From: a virus
Lineage: Duplodnaviria > Caudoviricetes
Strand: one strand, 5' to 3'
Virus record (IMG/VR): IMGVR_UViG_3300010362_000012
Coordinates: 20,425-84,424 of that record
DNA length: 64,000 bases
A model generated the notes under the pieces. The model saw only the letters and a program-made list of their open reading frames with translations, did not search any database and was not told where the DNA came from. Below are positions 10,195-42,058 of this stretch, in pieces (position 1 is the stretch's first letter; each line of letters starts with the position of its first letter). The translations under genes and the position numbers were made by a program.

Positions 10195-10568
10195 GGCTGC
10201 TGCTCGATCAGTTCGGCATGATCGGCCGTCGTCATGATCAGCAGCATCAGTTCTTCGATCGTGACCGTGTCGCCCTGGATCACGCGATGGAATTCCTCGA
10301 CGTAGCCCGACTTGCCGATGTAGTCGAGGATCACCGTCCGCAGCGCGGCGAAGTGCTTCGGCTTGAACTCGCCCAACATCTCGGCTGCCAGGATGAGCGG
10401 GGCAATCACGCGCGCACTGTCGTCGGTGAAGTGGACGCGCATGTCGTAGCCATCTTCGTCTGACACGCGCTCCAGTTGAATCGTGTCGCGCAACGTATCG
10501 AGCACGCGCCTAATGTGTGCCTCGAGCCGCCGCACGCGCATGTCGCGCATCGCTTCGATTTCGTTCAT
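10191..10568 (-). CDS. Hypothetical protein (mirror of 33009-33386)
   Basis: Mirror copy. Confidence 0.65.
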   Translation of the reverse strand: MNEIEAMRDMRVRRLEAHIRRVLDTLRDTIQLERVSDEDGYDMRVHFTDDSARVIAPLILAAEMLGEFKPKHFAALRTVILDYIGKSGYVEEFHRVIQGDTVTIEELMLLIMTTADHAELIEQQP

Positions 10569-12124
10569 GTGGTCCCCCAGAAGTCGCCGAGGCTGTAGGC
10601 TGCGACCTCCCGCGGCTCGTCGCGCTCGACGGAACGCAGGTATTCAATCTCCGCGCGCGTGCGCTCGTCGAGCTTCGACAGATCGCGTCCCTCCGGTTTC
10701 GGCGCGACGCCCGGCGGTTCCGGCCGCGACATCACGAGATAGCGCAGCGCCTTGGCCGCCTGCACCGGTCCGTCATCGTCGAGATCTTCGGGATTCGCCG
10801 TCGCCTGCAGGAGCTGCGGCACGGTCCGGATGAGCGTCGAGCAGTCCGGACTCACAATCAGCGCCGGCTGCTCGCCGGCCGGCGTGATCATCGGCTGGAA
10901 CCAGTGCTGGAGTCGTTGCCACCCGTTGATCGGATCGTGATCGGACCGGATCACCGGCACGCCGTGCAGGTAGAGCGTTTCGAACGTGTGCTCGCCGATT
11001 TCATCATCGGGAACGGTCTTCAGCGGGTTGCCCCACACCTGGCTCATCGTCAATTTCGATTGCGCGTTGATCAGGCTGATCGCTTTGGCGACATCGCTCG
11101 CGACCGTTTCGTTGAACGTGTGCTCGCGCTCGATGTAGAGCCGCCCGTCGGGCAGGACGACCGCCCAAAGCATGATCCCCGGTCGGAAAAAGCCCCAGTG
11201 CAGGCCGCAGAGGCGCGGGACGTCGTGCGGCACATCGATGTGCTGCACGCGGTCGTGCCGGACGAAGGTTTTGAAATATTGGCGCGGGAACACGTCGCGC
11301 CGGCCGAAGCGGAACATCGCGCGCCGCTCCGGTGAGAGCCCGGCCAGGTTTTGCACGTACCGCGGGTCCGCGTATGGGTTGTCCTCGAGTTTCGCGGCCA
11401 CGAAGTGGTACTGCGACGGATCCCAGTCCGGAAATTTCGTGCGATCGAACGTTTTGTCGATGAACATCTCCTCGACGAACGCCGAAAGCGGACCGCCAGG
11501 GTTTTCGCCGGCCAGGACGAGGCCGCGCCAGGTCGATCGCTTCCGCGTGCGGCCCGTCGAGGGCATGATCTCGACAAATTGGGTCTGTTCGAATTCCTCG
11601 AGCTGATCGAAGACGATCAAATCGACGTCGCCGCCGATGTAGGCCTTGTAGGCATCGGGTTCGAAGCAACTCCCCCACGTCAGCTCGCTGTCGTTGTCCC
11701 AGACGACTGAGTTGGTCATGTACTTCGCGCCGATCTGCTTGGTTTCGCGGATCGCGTAGCGCATGTGATTCAGGCGCAGCTCCGGCATGGTGCGCCGCAG
11801 GAACAACACGCTGAAATTCTCGAATTTGCCGCAGTAGCGATACGCGACCATCCGTAACAGATGCGATTTCGCCGAATTCCGATGCCCGCCGATGGCGATC
11901 GCCGCGTACTGCTGCGATTCGATCGCGTCGAGGAGCTCGACTTGCTTCGGCAGCGGCAGAAAAAACAGCCGCTTGTCGGTGGTGAGCTGTTTGTACGCGA
12001 GTTGGCGCTCGAAACACTCGTCGGTCGGGCACGCCCAGGCGGCGACGCGGTCCACCGTGCGCTGAATGAATTCGCTGTCGCAAAAACAGCAGCGAAATTC
12101 CGGCACCCAGCCGAGCGTCGTCAT
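10565..12124 (-). CDS. terL: Terminase large subunit, nuclease-degenerate (mirror of 31453-33012)
   Basis: Mirror copy. Confidence 0.88.
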   Translation of the reverse strand: MTTLGWVPEFRCCFCDSEFIQRTVDRVAAWACPTDECFERQLAYKQLTTDKRLFFLPLPKQVELLDAIESQQYAAIAIGGHRNSAKSHLLRMVAYRYCGKFENFSVLFLRRTMPELRLNHMRYAIRETKQIGAKYMTNSVVWDNDSELTWGSCFEPDAYKAYIGGDVDLIVFDQLEEFEQTQFVEIMPSTGRTRKRSTWRGLVLAGENPGGPLSAFVEEMFIDKTFDRTKFPDWDPSQYHFVAAKLEDNPYADPRYVQNLAGLSPERRAMFRFGRRDVFPRQYFKTFVRHDRVQHIDVPHDVPRLCGLHWGFFRPGIMLWAVVLPDGRLYIEREHTFNETVASDVAKAISLINAQSKLTMSQVWGNPLKTVPDDEIGEHTFETLYLHGVPVIRSDHDPINGWQRLQHWFQPMITPAGEQPALIVSPDCSTLIRTVPQLLQATANPEDLDDDGPVQAAKALRYLVMSRPEPPGVAPKPEGRDLSKLDERTRAEIEYLRSVERDEPREVAAYSLGDFWGTT

Positions 12125-20248: not shown

Positions 20249-20911
20249 TCACGTTCGAAGGGCCAAGACGCGCGCGTGACAGGCTTCGTCGTCGAGACAG
20301 GCGAGAAGCTGCCGGCCGAGGAATTCGGTATAGGCCGGCGGAATGGCTTCGTTCAGTTCCCGATCGGTCATCCAGTCGATGCCCATGGCGGCGCGCTTGA
20401 TCGCGCGCGAGCCGTTGCCGCGCACGTTATCGCCGCCATGGCCGGCAACCGTCACGTAGTCGCCGGTTGTCACGCGCCCGCGGTGTTGCGGATGGCGCGG
20501 CTGAAGCAGCAGGACGTTACTTTCGAACATCCGATGTCGGAGCACACGCAACCCGAACATCGCGCCGCAGAGCAGCACCTGTCGCGCGAGCGGCGCACCG
20601 ATCACGTTCTCGATGATGAAGGGCCGCCCGGTGTGCTCGAGCGCCTGGCGTGTCGGCTCGATGAGGTCCGCGCGCTCGATCTCACGCCAGCGTCGAGCGG
20701 ACCACGAGTAACGCTGACAGGGCGGGCTGGCATGAATCGCGTCGAACTCGTGCCCATGCCGCGCGACATATGCGAGCGCGTCATCCTGCACGAATTCGAA
20801 GGGGTAGCGTAGCTGCGACTGAATATCGACGCCGACGATGTCGTCGAAGCCGGCGCGATGATAGCCGACGGCAGCGCCGCCGGCGCCGCAGTAGAGATCA
20901 AGCAGTCTCAT
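20249..20911 (-). CDS. C5 cytosine DNA methyltransferase (mirror of 22666-23328)
   Basis: Mirror copy. Confidence 0.88.
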   Translation of the reverse strand: MRLLDLYCGAGGAAVGYHRAGFDDIVGVDIQSQLRYPFEFVQDDALAYVARHGHEFDAIHASPPCQRYSWSARRWREIERADLIEPTRQALEHTGRPFIIENVIGAPLARQVLLCGAMFGLRVLRHRMFESNVLLLQPRHPQHRGRVTTGDYVTVAGHGGDNVRGNGSRAIKRAAMGIDWMTDRELNEAIPPAYTEFLGRQLLACLDDEACHARVLALRT

Positions 20912-21623: not shown

Positions 21624-21673
21624 CGCCAAGCGGCTAAGCGTGCGCGCTCGAGTGGTCGCCAAGCGGCTAAGCG
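21624..21673 (+). repeat. Two 17-bp direct repeats CGCCAAGCGGCTAAGCG, 33-bp period (mirror 21904-21953)
   Basis: Exact copies at 21624-21640 and 21657-21673. Confidence 0.9.
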
Positions 21674-21783: not shown

Positions 21784-22006
21784 GGAGGCCTCCAAAATAT
21801 CATGGTCCCAGCTTCTTCGTCAAGCCTGCTCTCTCTGACGCTCCACCGCACGGGGCTGCACACTCCGATTCTCGCGATCCCTCGGCGTGCCAGGGCGTGC
21901 AACCGCTTAGCCGCTTGGCGACCACTCGAGCGCGCACGCTTAGCCGCTTGGCGCCCGTGGAGCTCGCGTTTTCTGCTTGACATGTCACTCTTGTCTCTGC
22001 TAGCGC

Positions 22007-22499: not shown

Positions 22500-22665
22500 A
22501 GAAAAAGCTCGACCGCGCCGGCGTTGATGCTGGACGGGGCAGGAAGACCTCGACCAATCATCGTGAGGGGCGCCGGCGCGGTCCGCGGCGGATGTGGGTT
22601 CACGCGATCGACTGTGACCTCGGACGCGATTGCACGTGTACGCCCAAGCTCGTACCACGGAAACT

Positions 22666-23328
22666 ATGAGACTGCTTGATCTCTACTGCGGCGCCGGCGG
22701 CGCTGCCGTCGGCTATCATCGCGCCGGCTTCGACGACATCGTCGGCGTCGATATTCAGTCGCAGCTACGCTACCCCTTCGAATTCGTGCAGGATGACGCG
22801 CTCGCATATGTCGCGCGGCATGGGCACGAGTTCGACGCGATTCATGCCAGCCCGCCCTGTCAGCGTTACTCGTGGTCCGCTCGACGCTGGCGTGAGATCG
22901 AGCGCGCGGACCTCATCGAGCCGACACGCCAGGCGCTCGAGCACACCGGGCGGCCCTTCATCATCGAGAACGTGATCGGTGCGCCGCTCGCGCGACAGGT
23001 GCTGCTCTGCGGCGCGATGTTCGGGTTGCGTGTGCTCCGACATCGGATGTTCGAAAGTAACGTCCTGCTGCTTCAGCCGCGCCATCCGCAACACCGCGGG
23101 CGCGTGACAACCGGCGACTACGTGACGGTTGCCGGCCATGGCGGCGATAACGTGCGCGGCAACGGCTCGCGCGCGATCAAGCGCGCCGCCATGGGCATCG
23201 ACTGGATGACCGATCGGGAACTGAACGAAGCCATTCCGCCGGCCTATACCGAATTCCTCGGCCGGCAGCTTCTCGCCTGTCTCGACGACGAAGCCTGTCA
23301 CGCGCGCGTCTTGGCCCTTCGAACGTGA
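22666..23328 (+). CDS. Orphan C5 cytosine DNA methyltransferase
   Basis: Motif I LDLYCGAGG, motif IV HASPPCQ, motif VI IIENV, RHR, C-terminal EAIPPAYTEFLG. Confidence 0.88.
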   Translation: MRLLDLYCGAGGAAVGYHRAGFDDIVGVDIQSQLRYPFEFVQDDALAYVARHGHEFDAIHASPPCQRYSWSARRWREIERADLIEPTRQALEHTGRPFIIENVIGAPLARQVLLCGAMFGLRVLRHRMFESNVLLLQPRHPQHRGRVTTGDYVTVAGHGGDNVRGNGSRAIKRAAMGIDWMTDRELNEAIPPAYTEFLGRQLLACLDDEACHARVLALRT

Positions 23329-23744: not shown

Positions 23745-24018
23745 GCGTTCCAACAGACAGCGTCGTCGATCCCAACATCGGCTGCGGACGCTCCTCGTCT
23801 GTGATGGCGTCCATCAACTGCTCGCGGTTGCCGGCGCGAATGTCAACGTCGCGGTGATTCGACGCTGGTCAGCGCGGCAGCGCGTCGAAGCGGTCGCGTG
23901 GGCGCAGGCCCAAATTGCCGCCTGGGCGAAAGACAAATCGGGTTGGCGGACGTCGGTCTACTGGCCGGAGCACGTCTCGCAGGCCCATCACCGCATCACG
24001 TCATCGGCAGCGGTTTGA
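23716..24018 (+). CDS. Hypothetical basic protein
   Basis: In-frame ATG inside ORF 23581-24018; start uncertain. Confidence 0.4.
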   Translation: MPRMRAGDRKRSNRQRRRSQHRLRTLLVCDGVHQLLAVAGANVNVAVIRRWSARQRVEAVAWAQAQIAAWAKDKSGWRTSVYWPEHVSQAHHRITSSAAV

Positions 24019-24265
24019 TCCGCGCACACTGCATACAAATCTTCGGCACGTCCTGATGCGGTCCCTTCGGGTTGAAGGCGATCGGCGCCGCGCAGCGATT
24101 GCAGATCGTGGTCGCCGCGCCGGCCGGCAGCGAGATATCGTAGTCGGCCACGCGCCGGCAGACGACGTGATCCGGGCGTCCTGGCGGCGCCGGCTCGAGC
24201 GGCCCGCCGCCGTGGCGCACACCGTAGTAGTTGCCCGCGTGAACGTCTGTCGGCCGCTTCTTCAT
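23996..24265 (-). CDS. Zn-binding hypothetical protein
   Basis: CNRC...CMQC; ATGA coupling. Confidence 0.6.
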   Translation of the reverse strand: MKKRPTDVHAGNYYGVRHGGGPLEPAPPGRPDHVVCRRVADYDISLPAGAATTICNRCAAPIAFNPKGPHQDVPKICMQCARIKPLPMT

Positions 24266-24495
24266 CCGAGCAACATTCCGAGATGCACGTATAGGAATTC
24301 GCGTGGCGTCCGATCCGCTCGATCACGATCGCTGTAGTACATGCGCAGGCACACCTTCAGCATCATGGGATCGGTTGTGTGCATGATGTCGATCAACGCC
24401 TTGCGATCCTCTGGTCGCAACGTATCAGATTCGAGCGCGGCGGCGATCTCGTCCACCGCCTGGGCCATCCGTTCAGGGCGATTCATGACGGCCAC
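24262..24495 (-). CDS. Hypothetical protein
   Basis: Overlapping-operon context. Confidence 0.6.
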   Translation of the reverse strand: MAVMNRPERMAQAVDEIAAALESDTLRPEDRKALIDIMHTTDPMMLKVCLRMYYSDRDRADRTPREFLYVHLGMLLG

Positions 24496-24917
24496 GAGAT
24501 GCCGCGCGTCCCCTGACGGAGCTCGCGCAGATCGATCAGTACCATGCCGGCGCGCTCGACGTCGATGCCGACTTTCTCGCGCAGCAGTTTCACGAATATT
24601 TCGTCCGATGTCGCGGCCTCGGCGGCCTCGAGCAGCATCAGTCCAACCTCGCGCGCCTTCGCCGGCGGCATCTGCGACCGTTGTTCGTTCAGCGTGAATT
24701 CCACATAGCCCTTCTGCGTCTTCTGCCCGTAGCTCGAGCTCACCGTGATGGAATCCACCTCGGGTTCTTCATCTGTCGTGACCTCGACCTCGCGGATGTT
24801 ACGTGCCGCCAGGACCGCTTCAGCCTGCTGCCGGAAGGCCTCAATCACGCGATTCGGCGCGCTCGTCACCTTGAGCATCGCCACGACTTCGTCGAGAATG
24901 AGCAGCGGCTTCGCCAT
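24483..24917 (-). CDS. Hypothetical protein
   Basis: Abuts upstream stop; normal composition. Confidence 0.7.
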   Translation of the reverse strand: MAKPLLILDEVVAMLKVTSAPNRVIEAFRQQAEAVLAARNIREVEVTTDEEPEVDSITVSSSYGQKTQKGYVEFTLNEQRSQMPPAKAREVGLMLLEAAEAATSDEIFVKLLREKVGIDVERAGMVLIDLRELRQGTRGISWPS

Positions 24918-30827: not shown

Positions 30828-31340
30828 GTGCGCGGGTGGGAACGCGTCACGCCGACCGATCTCGCCCGCCTCGCCGCGCCGAAACAAAGGCCTGCTGAGG
30901 CACGGCAGAAGTACCGCGCCGAGCCCTGCATCGTCACACCTGACGGCACGCTATTCACCGCGGCCGACATCACCACCGCAGAATTCGCTCAGCAACGCAT
31001 CGGCACGGGCACGCTGAAAGAACGCGCCGCGCGCTGCGCGATCGTCGGCCTCTGGTTCGCCTCGACGAAGGAAGGCCGGCGCTATCTCGAGCTCAAGCGG
31101 CTCGAGCAGGCGAAGGCGATCAGCGATCTGCAGTGCCAGGTCGAATACGATCTCACCGTCGTGTCGATCGTCGATGGCCGCACGCACGTCGTCGGCAAGT
31201 GGATCGCGGATTTCGTGTATCGTCGCGCCGGCGAGGTCGCGTTCGTGACCGAAGACACGAAGGGCGTGAAGACGAAGCTCTATCGACGATCGCGCCGCCA
31301 CTTCGAAGCGCAGTACGGGATGCCGATCCTCGAAACATGA
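30828..31340 (+). CDS. DUF1064-family PD-(D/E)XK-like protein
   Basis: FASTKEGRRYLELK, LQCQVEYDL, IADFVY, VTEDTKGVKT. Confidence 0.8.
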   Translation: MRGWERVTPTDLARLAAPKQRPAEARQKYRAEPCIVTPDGTLFTAADITTAEFAQQRIGTGTLKERAARCAIVGLWFASTKEGRRYLELKRLEQAKAISDLQCQVEYDLTVVSIVDGRTHVVGKWIADFVYRRAGEVAFVTEDTKGVKTKLYRRSRRHFEAQYGMPILET

Positions 31341-31456
31341 GCGCCAATGACCGCGACGAGATTCTCTGTCCACGTTGCAACCGTTGGACGTGGCATCACG
31401 GCTGGTGCGTACACTGTTTCGTCTTGATCACCAGGCGGATCACGAGCCGATCATGA
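31337..31456 (+). CDS. 39-aa Cys/His-rich peptide
   Basis: CPRC..W..HHGWCVHC; ATGA overlaps at both ends. Confidence 0.45.
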   Translation: MSANDRDEILCPRCNRWTWHHGWCVHCFVLITRRITSRS

Positions 31457-33012
31457 CGACGCTCGGCTGGGTGCCGGAATTTCGCTGCTGTTTTTGCGAC
31501 AGCGAATTCATTCAGCGCACGGTGGACCGCGTCGCCGCCTGGGCGTGCCCGACCGACGAGTGTTTCGAGCGCCAACTCGCGTACAAACAGCTCACCACCG
31601 ACAAGCGGCTGTTTTTTCTGCCGCTGCCGAAGCAAGTCGAGCTCCTCGACGCGATCGAATCGCAGCAGTACGCGGCGATCGCCATCGGCGGGCATCGGAA
31701 TTCGGCGAAATCGCATCTGTTACGGATGGTCGCGTATCGCTACTGCGGCAAATTCGAGAATTTCAGCGTGTTGTTCCTGCGGCGCACCATGCCGGAGCTG
31801 CGCCTGAATCACATGCGCTACGCGATCCGCGAAACCAAGCAGATCGGCGCGAAGTACATGACCAACTCAGTCGTCTGGGACAACGACAGCGAGCTGACGT
31901 GGGGGAGTTGCTTCGAACCCGATGCCTACAAGGCCTACATCGGCGGCGACGTCGATTTGATCGTCTTCGATCAGCTCGAGGAATTCGAACAGACCCAATT
32001 TGTCGAGATCATGCCCTCGACGGGCCGCACGCGGAAGCGATCGACCTGGCGCGGCCTCGTCCTGGCCGGCGAAAACCCTGGCGGTCCGCTTTCGGCGTTC
32101 GTCGAGGAGATGTTCATCGACAAAACGTTCGATCGCACGAAATTTCCGGACTGGGATCCGTCGCAGTACCACTTCGTGGCCGCGAAACTCGAGGACAACC
32201 CATACGCGGACCCGCGGTACGTGCAAAACCTGGCCGGGCTCTCACCGGAGCGGCGCGCGATGTTCCGCTTCGGCCGGCGCGACGTGTTCCCGCGCCAATA
32301 TTTCAAAACCTTCGTCCGGCACGACCGCGTGCAGCACATCGATGTGCCGCACGACGTCCCGCGCCTCTGCGGCCTGCACTGGGGCTTTTTCCGACCGGGG
32401 ATCATGCTTTGGGCGGTCGTCCTGCCCGACGGGCGGCTCTACATCGAGCGCGAGCACACGTTCAACGAAACGGTCGCGAGCGATGTCGCCAAAGCGATCA
32501 GCCTGATCAACGCGCAATCGAAATTGACGATGAGCCAGGTGTGGGGCAACCCGCTGAAGACCGTTCCCGATGATGAAATCGGCGAGCACACGTTCGAAAC
32601 GCTCTACCTGCACGGCGTGCCGGTGATCCGGTCCGATCACGATCCGATCAACGGGTGGCAACGACTCCAGCACTGGTTCCAGCCGATGATCACGCCGGCC
32701 GGCGAGCAGCCGGCGCTGATTGTGAGTCCGGACTGCTCGACGCTCATCCGGACCGTGCCGCAGCTCCTGCAGGCGACGGCGAATCCCGAAGATCTCGACG
32801 ATGACGGACCGGTGCAGGCGGCCAAGGCGCTGCGCTATCTCGTGATGTCGCGGCCGGAACCGCCGGGCGTCGCGCCGAAACCGGAGGGACGCGATCTGTC
32901 GAAGCTCGACGAGCGCACGCGCGCGGAGATTGAATACCTGCGTTCCGTCGAGCGCGACGAGCCGCGGGAGGTCGCAGCCTACAGCCTCGGCGACTTCTGG
33001 GGGACCACATGA
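31453..33012 (+). CDS. terL: Terminase large subunit; nuclease residues substituted
   Basis: Walker A GGHRNSAKS, FLRRTMPEL, Walker B LIVFDQ, coupling motif ENPGG, AKLEDNPY, C-terminal ALRY; upstream of portal. Confidence 0.88.
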   Translation: MTTLGWVPEFRCCFCDSEFIQRTVDRVAAWACPTDECFERQLAYKQLTTDKRLFFLPLPKQVELLDAIESQQYAAIAIGGHRNSAKSHLLRMVAYRYCGKFENFSVLFLRRTMPELRLNHMRYAIRETKQIGAKYMTNSVVWDNDSELTWGSCFEPDAYKAYIGGDVDLIVFDQLEEFEQTQFVEIMPSTGRTRKRSTWRGLVLAGENPGGPLSAFVEEMFIDKTFDRTKFPDWDPSQYHFVAAKLEDNPYADPRYVQNLAGLSPERRAMFRFGRRDVFPRQYFKTFVRHDRVQHIDVPHDVPRLCGLHWGFFRPGIMLWAVVLPDGRLYIEREHTFNETVASDVAKAISLINAQSKLTMSQVWGNPLKTVPDDEIGEHTFETLYLHGVPVIRSDHDPINGWQRLQHWFQPMITPAGEQPALIVSPDCSTLIRTVPQLLQATANPEDLDDDGPVQAAKALRYLVMSRPEPPGVAPKPEGRDLSKLDERTRAEIEYLRSVERDEPREVAAYSLGDFWGTT

Positions 33013-33386
33013 ACGAAATCGAAGCGATGCGCGACATGCGCGTGCGGCGGCTCGAGGCACACATTAGGCGCGTGCTCGATACGTTGCGCGACACGATTCA
33101 ACTGGAGCGCGTGTCAGACGAAGATGGCTACGACATGCGCGTCCACTTCACCGACGACAGTGCGCGCGTGATTGCCCCGCTCATCCTGGCAGCCGAGATG
33201 TTGGGCGAGTTCAAGCCGAAGCACTTCGCCGCGCTGCGGACGGTGATCCTCGACTACATCGGCAAGTCGGGCTACGTCGAGGAATTCCATCGCGTGATCC
33301 AGGGCGACACGGTCACGATCGAAGAACTGATGCTGCTGATCATGACGACGGCCGATCATGCCGAACTGATCGAGCAGCAGCCATGA
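33009..33386 (+). CDS. Hypothetical protein
   Basis: ATGA coupling. Confidence 0.65.
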   Translation: MNEIEAMRDMRVRRLEAHIRRVLDTLRDTIQLERVSDEDGYDMRVHFTDDSARVIAPLILAAEMLGEFKPKHFAALRTVILDYIGKSGYVEEFHRVIQGDTVTIEELMLLIMTTADHAELIEQQP

Positions 33387-33856
33387 AGAAGATCACCGAC
33401 GGTGTCTACCAGGACGACGCCGGCGCGATGCATCTCGTCATCGAGGAGATGCTTGATGCGGCAGGATACGCCGACACGCGCGAGAATCGCGAGACACTGA
33501 CGCGCGCGGCCATCGAGCGCGTACGCGAGACGTGGCCGCAGGTGGCGATCAGGGTCGATGACGAGCCCGACGTGACGCGTGTAGCCGTCTTCCACTGTCC
33601 GCGCTGCGGCCACAAGTCGGACGCGATCGGCTCGAGCGACGGATCGGTCGGCACCCCAGGACCGGGCGACGTCTGCGGGTGCCTCGCGTGCGGATTGCCG
33701 ATGGTCTTCGACGTCGATCCGCTGACGGGCCTGCTGCGCCTGCGAACGATGATTCGCGCGGAATTCGACGCGCTGAGCGACCATCAGCAGCGCGAACTGA
33801 TGCGCGTGAGTGCCTTCGCGCAGCAGGTGTTTCAACCGTCCAAGCGGATGAATTGA
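33383..33856 (+). CDS. Zn-ribbon hypothetical protein
   Basis: CPRC...CLAC. Confidence 0.65.
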   Translation: MKKITDGVYQDDAGAMHLVIEEMLDAAGYADTRENRETLTRAAIERVRETWPQVAIRVDDEPDVTRVAVFHCPRCGHKSDAIGSSDGSVGTPGPGDVCGCLACGLPMVFDVDPLTGLLRLRTMIRAEFDALSDHQQRELMRVSAFAQQVFQPSKRMN

Positions 33857-34231: not shown

Positions 34232-36652
34232 ATGGCGGTCGCGTCAGGGACGTTTGGTCGTGCTCCCGCCGTCGTGACACCCGGCGGCGCCGGGGATCCC
34301 GACAGGCCGCTGCTCGAGCACTTCGACAAAGCCAAACGCGAATGTTTCGCCGACCGCTGGCGCTATGAACGCGTGTGGACGCGCGCGATTCACTACTGCA
34401 ACATGCGCCAGTGGCTCGGCGTCTACGACCGCAACGGCGGTTGGATGGACAGCCGCGTCGCGAAGGGCGTGCCGCGGCCGGTGACGAGCAAGCCGAAAGA
34501 AGGCCTGCAGGCAATCCGCGCGATGTTCACGGCGGCGACGTTGGGCGTGGACGTGCGGCCGTTGAAGAACGACGTCCAGTCGATGACGACGGCGACGACC
34601 GCCGACAAACTCGCGCCGGTGTTGTATATCGCCAACGACATGGACCAGGTGCTGCACGAAGGCGATTACTGGTTCATCGTCACGGGCAATGTGATTTATC
34701 ACGTCAGCTACGACGATGACGGGACGTACCTCCAAGTGCCGTTCGAACGCTGTCTCTCGTGCGGCTACGAAGTGACGAGCGACGTGATCGCGAAAGCCGG
34801 GCAGAAATGTCCGATGTGCGGCAAACCCGGCCCGTTTGTGCGCGCGGTCGGTCCCGACGGGCGGCCGCGGATGGACGTGCGCGCCAACGGCCACACCGTC
34901 ACCACCGCGCTCTCGCCGCTCGAGGTCGCGTTCCCCTTCATGCGGCCACGCTGGAGCCTCGTCGATCGGCTGATCCGGATGCGCTGGCGCACGAAGGCCT
35001 ACTATGAATCGCAGCCGGCGCTCGAGCCGTACGTGAAGCGCATCACGTTCGCGAAAACCTCGACCGAGCGGTCGCTGCAGATTTTCCAGTCGCTGCCGTT
35101 CCAGACCGAGCTCAGTCCGAACCTGCTCGGCACGGCCGCGGGCAGCGGCGACGAAGAAGGCGTCGCCGAATACGAGCTCTGGGAACGCCCGACGCCGATG
35201 CGGCCCGACGGGTTCGTGATGCGCGTCGCCGGCGACAGCACGCCCGTCGTGCTCCATCTCGAGGAGACGGAGGGCTTGCCCGGCCCACTGCCGTATCACG
35301 AAGCGAACGGTAATCCGCTCTGGACGTTTCACCACGCAGCGTACGAACACGTCGGCGGGCGCGTGCTCGGCACCGGCGCGCTCGATCCCGCGATGGGGAA
35401 GTTCGATCAGCTGAATCGCCTCGACTCGATCGTCGAGATGATGATGACGCGGATGGCGATTCCGCAGATCTTGAAACCCAAAGGCCAGGACATCCAGTGG
35501 CTCGGCGATTCGCCGGCCATGCCGGGCCTCATCGCCGAATACGCGCCGGCGCCGGGCGGCGGCAAACCGGAACAGTGGCCCGGCCAGGATCCGCCGCGGT
35601 CGTGGGTGCAGCTCCGGCTGCAGATCAGCGAGGAGATTGACGCGGCGCTCGGCACGAACGACGTGCTGCGCGGACGCAAACCGCCGAACGTCGAAGCGTT
35701 CTCCGCGATGCAGTTGCTCGTCGAGGCGGGCGAAGCGCGCTTCGCCGGGGCGTTCAAATCGCGCGCGCTCGCGTTCCGCGATCTGACGCGCTCGCAGATT
35801 GAAATCGAACGCGAATTCGGTCCTGAGAAACGCGTGCAGTCGGTGATCACGCCCGGCCGCGGGTATAACTTCCAGACCTTCCAGCGTGCGGATCTCGACG
35901 GCGAGGTCACGTTCGAAGTGGCGGACGGCAGCACCAAGCCGAAAACTCAGCTCGCCGAGCGCGCGTCGATCGAGCATCTCAAACAACTCGGCGGCGTCGA
36001 TATCAACAATCCCGATACGCAATACGCGGTCTACCAGAAACTCGGACAGACCGATCTGATTCCGGCGACCGACAATCAGCATCAGGCGGCGCTACAGAAT
36101 CAGGAACTGTTCATGAACTGGATTCGCACGCCTGCTGCGTTGACGTACGTTCCGCAGGCTGCACCTCCGGCGGCGGGGGCGGAGGGAGGGATTCCGCCTC
36201 CGCCACCGGATCCAAGCACGGATCCGACCTACCCGTTTGTCTTGCAGCCGTGGTACGAGGTCCCCATCCACCGCATCGAGCTCGTCAAGTGGGCGGTCAG
36301 CGACGAGGCCATCGAGTTGTTCAAGATGATTCCGAAGGCGCGGTACTTCGTGGCGAAATATCTCGGCGAGATGGATCAGAAGATCGGCAACGCCACGACG
36401 CCGCCGCCAGAGAAACCGAAGATCTCCTACAGCTTCGGCAGCGAGGACATGGCCGCCGATCCGGCTGTGCGTCAGGCCTTCCTCGCCGCCGCGGACATTC
36501 CGCCGCCGGCGTCGCGCACCGCGCCCGGCGAACCGGGCGGCCCGCCGCAAGGCGCCGGCCTGGCGATGGCGAACAGCAATCAGAATACGGCGCCGATCGG
36601 CAACCAGGCGCAGCCGGCCATGCCGGCCGTCGGCGCGGGACCGGGGACGTAG
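34232..36652 (+). CDS. Portal protein (P22/podovirus-like) with Zn-ribbon insertion
   Basis: 806 aa between terL and scaffold/MCP; Q..LNR..S.I, GTNDVLRG...AFSAMQLLVE portal-like segments; Pro-rich tail. Confidence 0.8.
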   Translation: MAVASGTFGRAPAVVTPGGAGDPDRPLLEHFDKAKRECFADRWRYERVWTRAIHYCNMRQWLGVYDRNGGWMDSRVAKGVPRPVTSKPKEGLQAIRAMFTAATLGVDVRPLKNDVQSMTTATTADKLAPVLYIANDMDQVLHEGDYWFIVTGNVIYHVSYDDDGTYLQVPFERCLSCGYEVTSDVIAKAGQKCPMCGKPGPFVRAVGPDGRPRMDVRANGHTVTTALSPLEVAFPFMRPRWSLVDRLIRMRWRTKAYYESQPALEPYVKRITFAKTSTERSLQIFQSLPFQTELSPNLLGTAAGSGDEEGVAEYELWERPTPMRPDGFVMRVAGDSTPVVLHLEETEGLPGPLPYHEANGNPLWTFHHAAYEHVGGRVLGTGALDPAMGKFDQLNRLDSIVEMMMTRMAIPQILKPKGQDIQWLGDSPAMPGLIAEYAPAPGGGKPEQWPGQDPPRSWVQLRLQISEEIDAALGTNDVLRGRKPPNVEAFSAMQLLVEAGEARFAGAFKSRALAFRDLTRSQIEIEREFGPEKRVQSVITPGRGYNFQTFQRADLDGEVTFEVADGSTKPKTQLAERASIEHLKQLGGVDINNPDTQYAVYQKLGQTDLIPATDNQHQAALQNQELFMNWIRTPAALTYVPQAAPPAAGAEGGIPPPPPDPSTDPTYPFVLQPWYEVPIHRIELVKWAVSDEAIELFKMIPKARYFVAKYLGEMDQKIGNATTPPPEKPKISYSFGSEDMAADPAVRQAFLAAADIPPPASRTAPGEPGGPPQGAGLAMANSNQNTAPIGNQAQPAMPAVGAGPGT

Positions 36653-40304: not shown

Positions 40305-40873
40305 TCGAGCTGGGCGCGATCTACGTGCGGGATCTGAATCCCTTCAACCTCGAGCCGCCACCGCTCTGGTGGCAGCAGGGATTGTGGGCCTTCGATGCGG
40401 ATTTGCGGATGCTGCCCGGTCGCAAAAAACCCGTCTGGTGGTTGGCGCGGGTGAAACGCTACAGCAAAGGCCTGACGGGTGAGGCGATCATCGACGACCA
40501 GAACGACACGGCCATGTTCGTCAAGCATGACCTGGTGCCGGTGACGTGGATCGCCAGTACCGACGGCTGGAGCGAAGGCTTTCTCACCTACGTCGTCGGC
40601 GAGCTCGCGGCGCGGGATACCTGGGCGGTCGAAGGCGGGCCGCTCACGGAGGATCGCGTCAAGAAGGCGATGTTCGAAGGCGGATCGAAATACGGCGAGA
40701 TGCTGGATGAACGCGATGCCGCCGAGCGCCGCGGAATCGATCGCGAGGTGCGCGACGACGTCTATCACGCAACAGGTGACGCGTGGCGAAGTCTTCAGGC
40801 CCGAACAGGCGAGCGAGTCCTCAACGCCGGAAGACCCAGCGACCTGCCGCCCCCCACGGAGCCAAGCGCATGA
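40301..40873 (+). CDS. Hypothetical head-module protein
   Basis: ATGA coupling; true start inside the longer track ORF. Confidence 0.65.
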   Translation: MIELGAIYVRDLNPFNLEPPPLWWQQGLWAFDADLRMLPGRKKPVWWLARVKRYSKGLTGEAIIDDQNDTAMFVKHDLVPVTWIASTDGWSEGFLTYVVGELAARDTWAVEGGPLTEDRVKKAMFEGGSKYGEMLDERDAAERRGIDREVRDDVYHATGDAWRSLQARTGERVLNAGRPSDLPPPTEPSA

Positions 40874-41199
40874 CGAAACGAGTCGAGCACGACGACGAAC
40901 CGAATGATGTAGCGGTGCCGACCTCGATGCGGATGTCCATCGCCGACCCGACCACGCTTGCGTTCACGCTTGATCCCAGCAGTGGACCGGAGCACACGGC
41001 GATTGTGATCACCGGCACCGACTTCGGCGATCAACCGGGCACGCTGTTTCTCAATGAAGTGCCGGCACCCGTCGTGCTCTGGACGCCGCTGGTGATCCAG
41101 ACGCTCGTGCCGTACGGCGCGACGAGCGGCGAGCTCGTGGTGACGACGACCGATGGCCGCCGGGGTGCGGCGACGTTCACCGTGACCGAGAAGGACTGA
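40870..41199 (+). CDS. IPT/TIG domain protein
   Basis: LDPSSGPEHTAIVITGTDFG...VPYGATSGELVVTT. Confidence 0.7.
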   Translation: MTKRVEHDDEPNDVAVPTSMRMSIADPTTLAFTLDPSSGPEHTAIVITGTDFGDQPGTLFLNEVPAPVVLWTPLVIQTLVPYGATSGELVVTTTDGRRGAATFTVTEKD

Positions 41200-41480
41200 T
41201 GCCCGACGACCCGCGCCGGCCGTTTACGCCCAATGTCTTCTGGTCGGGCGAGTCGCGCATGCCGGCGCCGGCGCCGCCCGACAAGGATGCGGCCACGATG
41301 GACTGGCTGCAGAACTGGTACGCGCAGCAACCGGGACTGATCGACAAGCTCGCCGGCGTCGGCTTGAAATTGCAATCGCTGCTCCCAAGGAAGCGGGAAG
41401 ACATCGAGCTGCCGCCGTCCCCGAACGGATCGATCGCGGCGCTGCGTCGGAAAACTCAATCACGAGGAGACGGCCGATGA
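41199..41480 (+). CDS. Hypothetical protein
   Basis: TGATG coupling. Confidence 0.55.
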   Translation: MPDDPRRPFTPNVFWSGESRMPAPAPPDKDAATMDWLQNWYAQQPGLIDKLAGVGLKLQSLLPRKREDIELPPSPNGSIAALRRKTQSRGDGR

Positions 41481-42058
41481 ACTGGACGAAGCAATTTACG
41501 CAGTCGCCCGACGGCTATCTGTGGGCGAACCAGGCGGCGGCGGCCGCCATCGAAGCGGAGTCCGCCATCTGGCAACGCGTGGACATGGCGCTTGCCGGCG
41601 CGACGCCCGGCGCGCAGCGGGCCTTCGATGGCTTGCGGCGATGGATGGCGCAGCACCTCCAGGCGCCGCAGGCGCGCTTCACGCCGCTCGTCAACTCGAC
41701 CAGCGGGCTGATCACGGCGTCCACCGGCGGCCTCTACGGCCTGATCGCGACGCGGCTGTATGGTGTCTACATCCGCAAGACGAACGTCGCCGGATCCTCG
41801 ACAGCCAGCTATTTGAAATTTTTCGACGACGGCACGGACGGCGCGCTCTCGGGCATGACCGCCGCGAGCCGTCTCGTGATTCCGCTTGGCGCCGTGTCGA
41901 GCGGCAACCCCGGCACGCTCTACGAGGGCTTGTACGTGAACCCGAACGGCCTCGCCGTCGCGAACGGTCTGCGGTTCGCGCTCGTCACGCTCGCCGATAC
42001 GTTCACGATTTCGGCGGCGGCGGACGGTGGCGACGGCTTCGCGATCACCGCGCCGTAG
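41477..42058 (+). CDS. Hypothetical virion protein
   Basis: AGGAG RBS; beta-rich C-terminus. Confidence 0.65.
   Translation: MNWTKQFTQSPDGYLWANQAAAAAIEAESAIWQRVDMALAGATPGAQRAFDGLRRWMAQHLQAPQARFTPLVNSTSGLITASTGGLYGLIATRLYGVYIRKTNVAGSSTASYLKFFDDGTDGALSGMTAASRLVIPLGAVSSGNPGTLYEGLYVNPNGLAVANGLRFALVTLADTFTISAAADGGDGFAITAP

Follow-up and report, generated by a model that had tools for sequence, protein, structure and literature searches.

Whether a tailed phage can package its genome with a large terminase that is unable to cut DNA is the question raised by an open reading frame (ORF) at positions 31453-33012 (plus strand, 519 amino acids from an ATG) of a 64,000-nt stretch of viral DNA (Duplodnaviria; Caudoviricetes). 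The stretch, referred to as the window in the following, corresponds to positions 20,425 to 84,424 of the IMG/VR record IMGVR_UViG_3300010362_000012. The original prediction had proposed that every acidic residue of the nuclease is substituted in this large terminase (TerL), and had taken the phage, whose genome shows a fold-back end, as a candidate for cut-free packaging of hairpin-ended DNA. According to the results presented here, the ORF is probably the only large terminase of the phage and unable to cut DNA, i.e. a translocase that has long been fixed in a clade with fixed linear genome ends, which another activity makes. The hairpin claim should be dropped unless it is supported by reads or virion DNA.

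Identity and register of the large terminase

Pfam assigned the protein itself to no family (a chance match to Endonuc_Holl had an E value of 0.28) and a phmmer comparison with the PDB gave no match; its ATPase part matched PHROG 979 ("terminase large subunit", E 4.6e-18), and 144 TerL homologues were retrieved from 5.8 billion proteins. The starts of these homologues cluster near the ATG at 31453 (the longer ORF opens at TTG 31375). Those with 27-45% identity carry the Pfam domains Terminase_3 (PF04466), Terminase_6N (PF03237) and Terminase_6C (PF17289), and in a family alignment of 87 sequences (A1) they read xDWG, (A/G)D(P/T) and EDHAaDALRY in the columns that are occupied by GLHWG, WGNP and PVQAAKALRY in the window protein. 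With the A1 profile, which covers residues 169-414 of the D6E TerL, the same columns corresponded to CDYG, VDPS and DHqlDAdRY in this protein of solved structure (5oe8, E 5e-6).

The AF2 model calculated on A1 (mean pLDDT 90.5) is a two-domain large terminase with the full-length TerLs of D6E, HK97, Sf6 and T4 as best Foldseek matches; isolated nuclease domains were matched as well (P22 4dkw, TM 0.69; SPP1 2wc9, 0.65; G20c 5m1f, 0.68). The RNase H-like "nuclease" fold comprises residues ~300-470 (32350-32862, plus strand) and was identified by both Foldseek and profile alignment. In the model, H309 and N366 end the beta-strands 304-309 and 360-366 and K458 is located in helix 455-465, and the three residues occupy the canonical metal-ligand positions of the RNase H fold. 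The register assumed for the substitutions was thus confirmed by the 87-sequence alignment, the D6E profile alignment and the AF2 model. A second terL elsewhere in the genome, which would have undermined the proposal, did not emerge from five records of 43.5-84 kb: in six-frame searches with four terminase families (Terminase_6N, PF03237; Terminase_3, PF04466; TerL_ATPase, PF03354; GpA_ATPase, PF05876) only terL or nothing was matched.

Replacement of the catalytic residues

In the SPP1 terminase G2P, the substitutions D266N, D321N and D403N each abolish nuclease activity and H400A impairs it (PMC2685612); likewise, mutation of the conserved acidic metal ligands is reviewed as abolishing terminase cleavage in general (PMC13595956). 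None of these four ligands is retained in the window TerL. Alignment and profile place H309 (CAC at 32377-32379, within LCGLHWGFF) at the first catalytic Asp (SPP1 D266), N366 (AAC at 32548-32550, within QVWGNPLKT) at the second (SPP1 D321) and Q455-A-A-K458 (32815-32826) at the H-x-x-D pair (SPP1 H400/D403), all on the plus strand; K458 is encoded by AAG at 32824-32826 (VQAAKALRY), and Q455 stands for the histidine of the D-H-x-x-D motif. Codons and positions had been given correctly in the original prediction. Its wording that all acidic residues are substituted applies to the three canonical aspartates (and the histidine), but not to E334, E382 and E446, which remain. These glutamates are equally conserved in nuclease-intact relatives and do not constitute new metal ligands. 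From the exchange of Asp/Asp/His/Asp for His/Asn/Gln/Lys we infer that the two-metal site is abolished and cutting lost.

A diversified clade with a constrained nuclease fold

In the 87-sequence alignment, Asp is missing from each of the three sites in 51 proteins and present at all of them in 33, and another 3 are intermediate. All sequences that lack the first Asp (53/53) fall into one exclusive clade (SH-like support 0.943), which is nested inside TerLs of the Asp-Asp-Asp type and has five of them as its sister (support of the parent node 1.0). Early branches of the clade read F/D/H, H/D/H, H/Q/Q and R/N/K at the three sites, the main body H/N/K or H/N/N; overall, H309 (94%) and N366 (96%) are conserved, and site 458 is K, N or R in most members. 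At matched identity of the ATPase domain, the identity of the nuclease domain amounted, in the example compared, to 0.51 in the nuclease-dead clade versus 0.47 in the live clade. Loss of the triad thus arose once and defines a diversified clade of soil and groundwater phages, in which the RNase H-like fold is kept under purifying selection despite the abolished site. Relaxed selection or a pseudogene was rejected as an explanation, because the dead clade conserves this fold to the same degree as its live relatives do; the proposed selective loss of cutting gains support from the single origin and from this equal constraint.

These findings describe a full-length, otherwise classical TerL that lacks the whole metal-binding triad across a diversified clade while its fold is under selection. 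Such a protein would be a natural separation-of-function variant, in which roles of the nuclease domain besides cutting (portal docking, DNA grip, cross-talk between the domains) could be addressed, and its phages would form a group in which end formation is necessarily uncoupled from TerL: the end-maker could be a nuclease acting in trans, telomere resolution or another activity.

A search of 1.84 billion representatives also pointed to more distant TerLs without the first Asp (R/N/H and K-type; P0121-P0123, P0132, P0151, P0165 and P0193). Nuclease-degenerate terminases may extend beyond the H/N/K clade, the alignment of the second site being unreliable for sequences at this distance. Two other peculiarities were seen among the homologues: the terL match of L025 (9989-12081) is divided between two ORFs, and an intein in terL is suggested by the Hint domain (PF13403) of P0100 (760 aa).

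The re-wired ATPase site

The Walker A motif or P-loop, GGHRNSAKS (31687-31713, plus strand), has G79, G80, K86 and S87 invariant in the family and adopts the strand-loop-helix arrangement in the model. The Walker B motif, LIVF-D173-Q174-L-E176 (31957-31980, plus strand), is non-canonical and fails the hhhhDE pattern, the live relatives reading hhhFDE: the position following the Asp is Gln in 100% of the dead clade versus Glu in 100% of the live relatives, and at position +3 E176 is present instead of Val. A third exchange affects the sensor-I or C-motif position, the role of which is known from earlier work (PMC9410871): E207 (32071-32073, plus strand) is found there, and Thr in 96% of the live relatives. 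Q174, E176 and E207 are invariant in the dead clade, and R276 (versus Trp) and R292 (versus His) also separate dead from live sequences.

A Glu-to-Gln exchange beside the Walker B aspartate normally stops hydrolysis. Indeed, E143 of the D6E TerL was predicted to be indispensable, and the Walker B glutamate of HK97 (D153/E154) is catalytic (PMC9410871). The D-Q-x-E motif also occurs, though, in seven more distant TerLs whose nuclease triad is intact (P0176, P0188, P0189, P0234, P0246, P0253 and P0256). In consequence, a dead ATPase is unlikely, a relocation of the catalytic glutamate would be the likelier reading of the motif, and the motor is probably active. The clade would then illustrate how the catalytic glutamate of a viral packaging ATPase can change its position in nature.

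The whole-record palindrome

The 84,424-nt IMG/VR record consists of a 42,212-nt unit and its own reverse complement, joined with a 0-nt spacer and at 100% identity. The single unit corresponds to window positions 21789-64000; the portion of the palindrome inside the window spans 1-43576 (arms 1-21788 and 21789-43576, from 2 x 42,212 nt in the full record) and folds back at the axis 21788/21789. A mirror copy of TerL is accordingly found on the minus strand of the other arm (10565-12124). The observation that both arms agree on the substitutions is true yet carries no weight, since this copy is identical by construction and is not an independent sequence. Both outer ends of the record are the same truncated point: the unit breaks off inside a gene at its right end and is ~6-10 kb shorter there than the collinear 48.2-kb relative G001. 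The label "inverted terminal repeats" given to the record by IMG/VR stems only from the doubling.

Perfect palindromes of whole contigs are a documented error of short-read assembly, with 81 such contigs described from M. bovis assemblies (PMC9455707). The present record has the same features, i.e. a unit plus exact reverse complement, zero spacer and outer ends at one truncated point, and the contigs of three relatives (G006, G022 and L102) merely end at the axis position without folding back. It differs from the documented cases in that the turn is not made at an internal natural palindrome but at a terminus that was also reached by independent assemblies of relatives. No palindromic relative was detected among ~50 related contigs (80 IMG/VR loci and 38 metagenome loci looked through), and the expected co-occurrence of nuclease-dead TerLs with palindromic contigs did not materialize, this record being the only palindrome. 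Window DNA is contained in two soil-metagenome runs at ~10x and ~4x depth; the Logan contigs of these runs list no strand-changing joint or loose end at 21789, their coverage ending short of the junction (the longest stops 103 nt from the axis).

The probable origin of the 84-kb palindrome is an assembler folding back at the true left end of the genome; a hairpin is not demonstrated by it. As the palindrome is a known assembler artefact without a palindromic relative, it is not evidence for a hairpin, and the proposed hairpin end loses its sole support; the clade moreover lacks a detectable protelomerase (see below) and the unit is truncated.

CheckV rated the records G000-G006 (44-84 kb) as 39-73% complete, which corresponds to an expected size of ~65-124 kb, whereas both ends were seen repeatedly at 47-50 kb. 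The reference on which this estimate is based may itself be a doubled palindromic record; as a doubled and truncated genome listed in IMG/VR, the present record could distort completeness estimates in turn.

Genome termini of the clade

All eight related contigs of at least 43 kb are classified as linear, with terL 7.2-12.9 kb from one end. G006, a 49.8-kb contig with 75% TerL identity, starts at most 1 nt from the position homologous to the axis; this end is not palindromic, so the record did not turn at a palindrome naturally present inside the genome. Relative to the axis, G022 starts 24 nt and L102 201 nt further in. Independent assemblies end within 16-18 nt of one another (L006/L007; JGI versus Logan contigs of P0044), and G001 and G002, from two samples, share their far end within 5 nt. 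Assembly of the clade genomes thus gives linear molecules of ~44-50 kb whose ends are reproducible, and the near-identical end points of independent linear contigs together with the position of the axis at the G006 terminus make it very probable that these ends are fixed and non-permuted. Among the relatives with intact TerL, direct-terminal-repeat records and proviruses are included. Between the ends of the unit or of G001-G005, neither direct nor inverted terminal repeats were found (word size 7-8), and IMG/VR contains no read-through or junction contig for the right end of G001/G002 or the left end of the window unit.

An outward-facing sigma-70-like promoter (TTGACG, 18 nt, TG-n-TATTTT; 21794-21823, minus strand) ends 5 nt short of the axis. 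When read inward, the left and right termini of different clade members share one layout (alignment A3): the terminus, ~31-37 nt, and GTCAA(C/G)C..GTCCCC (L140:1-60, L142:1-40, L081:1-60, L084:1440-1500, L085:1-60 and L090:1440-1500). Read outward, it represents a sigma-70-like promoter firing off the DNA end or across joined ends. Such inverted symmetry suits a symmetric end-making process. The small early genes at 23996-24917 of the window are homologous to positions 40377-41615 and 10520-10849 of G005; they are located in the left arm of the window phage and in the right arm of G005, in the same orientation, which suggests that the termini appear at different points of a circular gene map. 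A stage in which the DNA is circular or concatemeric is favoured both by this placement and by the outward promoters, whose orientation would be plausible with joined ends.

Signatures of hairpin read-through at the ends of relatives were limited to 5 nt in G001 and an imperfect 8+2+8 palindrome in L101, which is too weak. G002 stops at the exact centre of the 10-nt palindrome TGAAGCTTCA (L081:1-10, L084:1483-1500), and G001 runs 5 nt beyond. An exact 17-nt direct repeat, CGCTTAGCCGCTTGGCG, is present at 21904-21920 and 21937-21953 (33 nt apart; mirrored at 21624-21673), at a distance of 115-165 nt from the terminus; by chance, no such repeat would be expected, and it may be a protein-binding site near the end.

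Formation of the genome ends

Given that the cutting site of TerL is lost, the genome ends would be produced by an activity other than TerL. According to the explanation that we consider probable as a whole, TerL would act as translocase only, an ASCE ATPase with a P-loop and the re-wired site D173-Q174-x-E176 plus E207; its dead domain would be retained for docking to the portal, for gripping DNA or for interdomain regulation, in line with proposals for the vestigial domain of phi29 gp16. The nature of the end-making activity is a separate issue. That a separate nuclease makes the ends on replicated DNA, with a DUF1064 protein as the candidate in the window phage, is a serious possibility that falls short of an even chance; the task of such an enzyme could be either cleavage at a cos-like site or, as with poxvirus A22, resolution of an inverted-dimer junction. 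It is possible, if doubtful, that unit-length molecules arise by replication and are packaged without any cut, and covalently closed hairpin-ended DNA, a subset of this case, is unlikely. The dead TerL is accounted for about equally well by a nuclease acting in trans and by packaging without a cut.

The DUF1064 gene (30828-31340, plus strand; 170 aa, ...IADF...EDTKG) occupies the usual position of the small terminase. Its product matched PF06356 with 46.9 bits (cut-off 24.7) and PHROG 190 ("Holliday junction resolvase", E 1.9e-20), and DUF1064 has been assigned to the PD-(D/E)XK superfamily (PMC1189080). A 39-aa Cys-rich Zn-knuckle ORF (CPRC...CVHC; 31337-31456, plus strand), not conserved in relatives, overlaps with DUF1064 upstream and TerL downstream at ATGA sequences, through which DUF1064 is predicted to be translationally coupled to terL. 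The subclade of at least 62% TerL identity carries DUF1064 0.4-3 kb upstream of terL, and the gene was found upstream of terL in G000, G001, G005, G006, G022 and G023. A role as clade-wide partner was rejected, the gene being absent from G003/G004 and present with live TerLs. DUF1064 is rather a common resolvase gene at that genome position and, in the window phage, a candidate end-maker.

Several points weigh against the preferred explanation of a translocase-only TerL with separately made ends. The loss of cutting is deduced from residues, and H309, N366 and K458 are themselves conserved, leaving room for a different chemistry at the same site. The reproducible contig ends could reflect a sequence that blocks sequencing or assembly instead of a physical terminus; the unit is ~6-10 kb short compared with G001, hence genes are missing, and CheckV rated all these records as 39-73% complete. 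DUF1064 is absent from the G003/G004 subclade and from the genes called within 10 kb of terL in L100 and L101, and it is equally common beside intact TerLs (L018, L060, L075 and L077).

If the phages followed a cos-like route with circles or concatemers, a separate nuclease (here DUF1064) would make the ends and TerL would only translocate, a scenario that we regard as possible without favouring it. The PD-(D/E)XK gene in the small-terminase position with its ATGA coupling to terL, its presence in the subclade of at least 62% TerL identity, the lambda-type initiator (PHROG 270), the permutation of early genes across the ends and the outward promoters, sensible once ends are joined, all agree with it, as does the participation of the accessory HNH protein gp74 in terminase cutting of HK97 (PMC9410871). 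The HK97 TerL, though, has an intact nuclease site and so sets no precedent for full delegation; DUF1064 has the patchy distribution just described (missing in G003, G004 and near terL in L100/L101, present with intact TerLs), no contig spans the right-left junction, no terminal overhang sequence is common to both ends of any record, and the ends are far from terL. The latter distance (terL 7-13 kb from the end, unlike typical cos phages) would suit a unit-length duplex with covalently closed hairpin ends that are made before packaging, so that the nuclease-dead TerL packages it uncut. From a hairpin read or a head-to-head dimer, a perfect spacer-less junction of terminus and reverse complement would be expected; the axis at most 1 nt from an independently assembled terminus and outside a natural internal palindrome, the inverted layout common to left and right termini as expected of one symmetric process, and the 5 nt by which G001 extends past the centre of the 10-nt palindrome where G002 stops point in the same direction, and the Holliday-junction-resolvase-type nuclease adjoining terL could resolve inverted-repeat junctions like poxvirus A22. 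Hairpin ends are nevertheless improbable: whole-contig palindromes are documented as assembly error (PMC9455707), the record is the only palindromic one among ~50 related contigs while other termini lack read-through palindromes, and the imperfect 8+2+8 palindrome of L101 is impossible from hairpin read-through. In addition, neither a protelomerase (PF16684, the ResT/TelK catalytic domain, E <= 1) nor a tyrosine recombinase/integrase (PF00589) was detected in ten clade records (0/10 each), the early genes on opposite arms of two phages in the same orientation suggest a circular genetic map, and DUF1064 is not universal in the clade. Still a little less probable is the extended scheme of linear replication with hairpin-type inverted termini, in which head-to-head dimers would be resolved by a Holliday-junction-type nuclease without protelomerase, in the manner of poxviruses, followed by cut-free packaging by TerL with its re-wired ATPase; if true, it would represent a fourth packaging strategy beside cos, pac/headful and phi29.

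Two further alternatives concern TerL itself. The protein would still cut DNA if H309, N366 and K458 formed a metal-independent or one-metal site together with the retained H396, D397 and E334. The replacements are non-random (94% of clade members have H and 96% have N, and most have K/N/R at the third site), and His, Lys and Asn are catalytic in other nuclease families. Site 458 varies, however (K, N, R, T, E, I, Q), and site 309 is R, F or Q in early branches, unlike a catalytic residue; no RNase H-fold nuclease is known to work without carboxylates. Considering also that a single D-to-N exchange at one site is sufficient to inactivate SPP1 G2P (PMC2685612), such a new chemistry is very unlikely. 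Least probable of all, and only a slight chance, is that a canonical terminase is encoded in an unsampled part of the genome or provided by a helper and that the ORF at 31453-33012 is an exapted paralogue. The truncated unit, the CheckV values of 39-73% and the non-canonical Walker B motif could be cited in its favour; against it stand the lack of any other terminase family in the five records of 43.5-84 kb, the canonical terL-portal-scaffold-capsid order around the gene, the strong conservation of both TerL domains, the same Walker B variant in nuclease-intact TerLs and, in relatives, the recurrence of both contig ends, an indication that the genome is complete at 47-50 kb.

Comparison with known packaging systems

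The nearest known case of a translocase-only terminase is the vestigial nuclease of phi29 gp16, and phi29-like phages are the only tailed phages stated in the current literature to have a packaging motor without nuclease activity (PMC13595956). Both systems share a TerL-family ASCE motor, a non-cutting RNase H-derived C-terminal domain, the latter by residue inference in the window protein, and fixed, non-permuted linear ends (PMC7672431; PMC13595956). In contrast to gp16, the window TerL shows 36-45% identity to active Terminase_3/6N enzymes, keeps a full-size nuclease fold (~170-210 aa) in which the motifs typical of TerLs are present, and has a re-wired Walker B motif alongside the nuclease loss. 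The clade genomes are also larger (44-50 kb versus ~20 kb), and no phi29-type polymerase (PF03175, E <= 0.1) was found in the ten clade records.

With canonical TerLs (SPP1 G2P, D6E, P22, Sf6) the window protein has in common the two-domain architecture, the P-loop with Arg, the RNase H-like C-terminal domain and the location near the portal gene; it differs by the replacement of the three catalytic Asp and the His, the D-Q-x-E Walker B motif and the sensor-I Glu. It also has an N-terminal Cys4 zinc ribbon (CCFC...CPTDEC, residues ~10-45, 31480-31587, plus strand; two beta-hairpins and a helix in the model), which is present in the nearest live relatives too and, being common to nuclease-dead and nuclease-intact members, is a family trait.

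A separate nuclease gene adjoins the terminase genes as in HK97, in which the HNH protein gp74 participates in forming the ends (PMC9410871); the HK97 TerL keeps its active site, whereas the neighbour in the window is a PD-(D/E)XK protein of the DUF1064 type that is not present in all clade members. HNH nucleases (PF01844, E <= 0.1) were not detected in the ten clade records (0/10).

In N15, PY54 and phiKO2, a protelomerase gene adjoins the tel site, and the terminase is active and packages DNA that has been cut at cos. If the ends of the clade were hairpins, these linear, hairpin-ended tailed phages would be comparable, and a fold-back junction would be expected at the telomeres; the clade differs by its nuclease-dead TerL and by the lack of protelomerase and tyrosine recombinase in the ten records.

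Neighbouring genes and further observations

The unit contains a leftward early block at 22.4-30.4 kb, which includes the lambda-type initiator (PHROG 270), followed by a rightward late block (DUF1064 nuclease, 39-aa Cys-rich ORF, terL, two small ORFs, portal, scaffold-like, major capsid and tail genes) and, from 61.2 kb on, by leftward genes again, the final one being cut off by the unit end. The order terL, two small ORFs, portal, scaffold-like and major capsid gene is conserved in relatives. The portal protein (34232-36652, plus strand; 806 aa) was identified by PHROG 156 (E 2e-4), a weak match to Pfam P22_portal and synteny.

Just downstream of terL, a 157-aa zinc-ribbon protein (CPRC...CGCLAC; 33383-33856, plus strand) is encoded that is conserved in the nuclease-dead clade, with homologues adjoining terL in L001, L002, L003, L008, L010 and L011. 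It matched no Pfam or PHROG family, and its atlas matches comprise viral hypothetical proteins only. According to BLASTP comparisons of four genomes, this protein and two small right-arm ORFs are the only conserved non-structural partners. Large unannotated ORFs of the window and L029 gave no family matches.

Several clade members contain, in their early region, a gene for a 570-670-aa HerA/FtsK-like ATPase (DUF87/HerA_C) with C-terminal winged-helix domains (L094:3225-4958 and L099:2775-4790, both minus strand; L100:3407-5125; L101:3017-4897); no counterpart was seen in the truncated unit of the window. L100 additionally encodes a DNA polymerase III beta clamp. At 22630-23328, a C-5 cytosine DNA methyltransferase-like gene (PF00145, E 1.6e-7) belongs to the first genes encountered inside the left terminus of the window unit.

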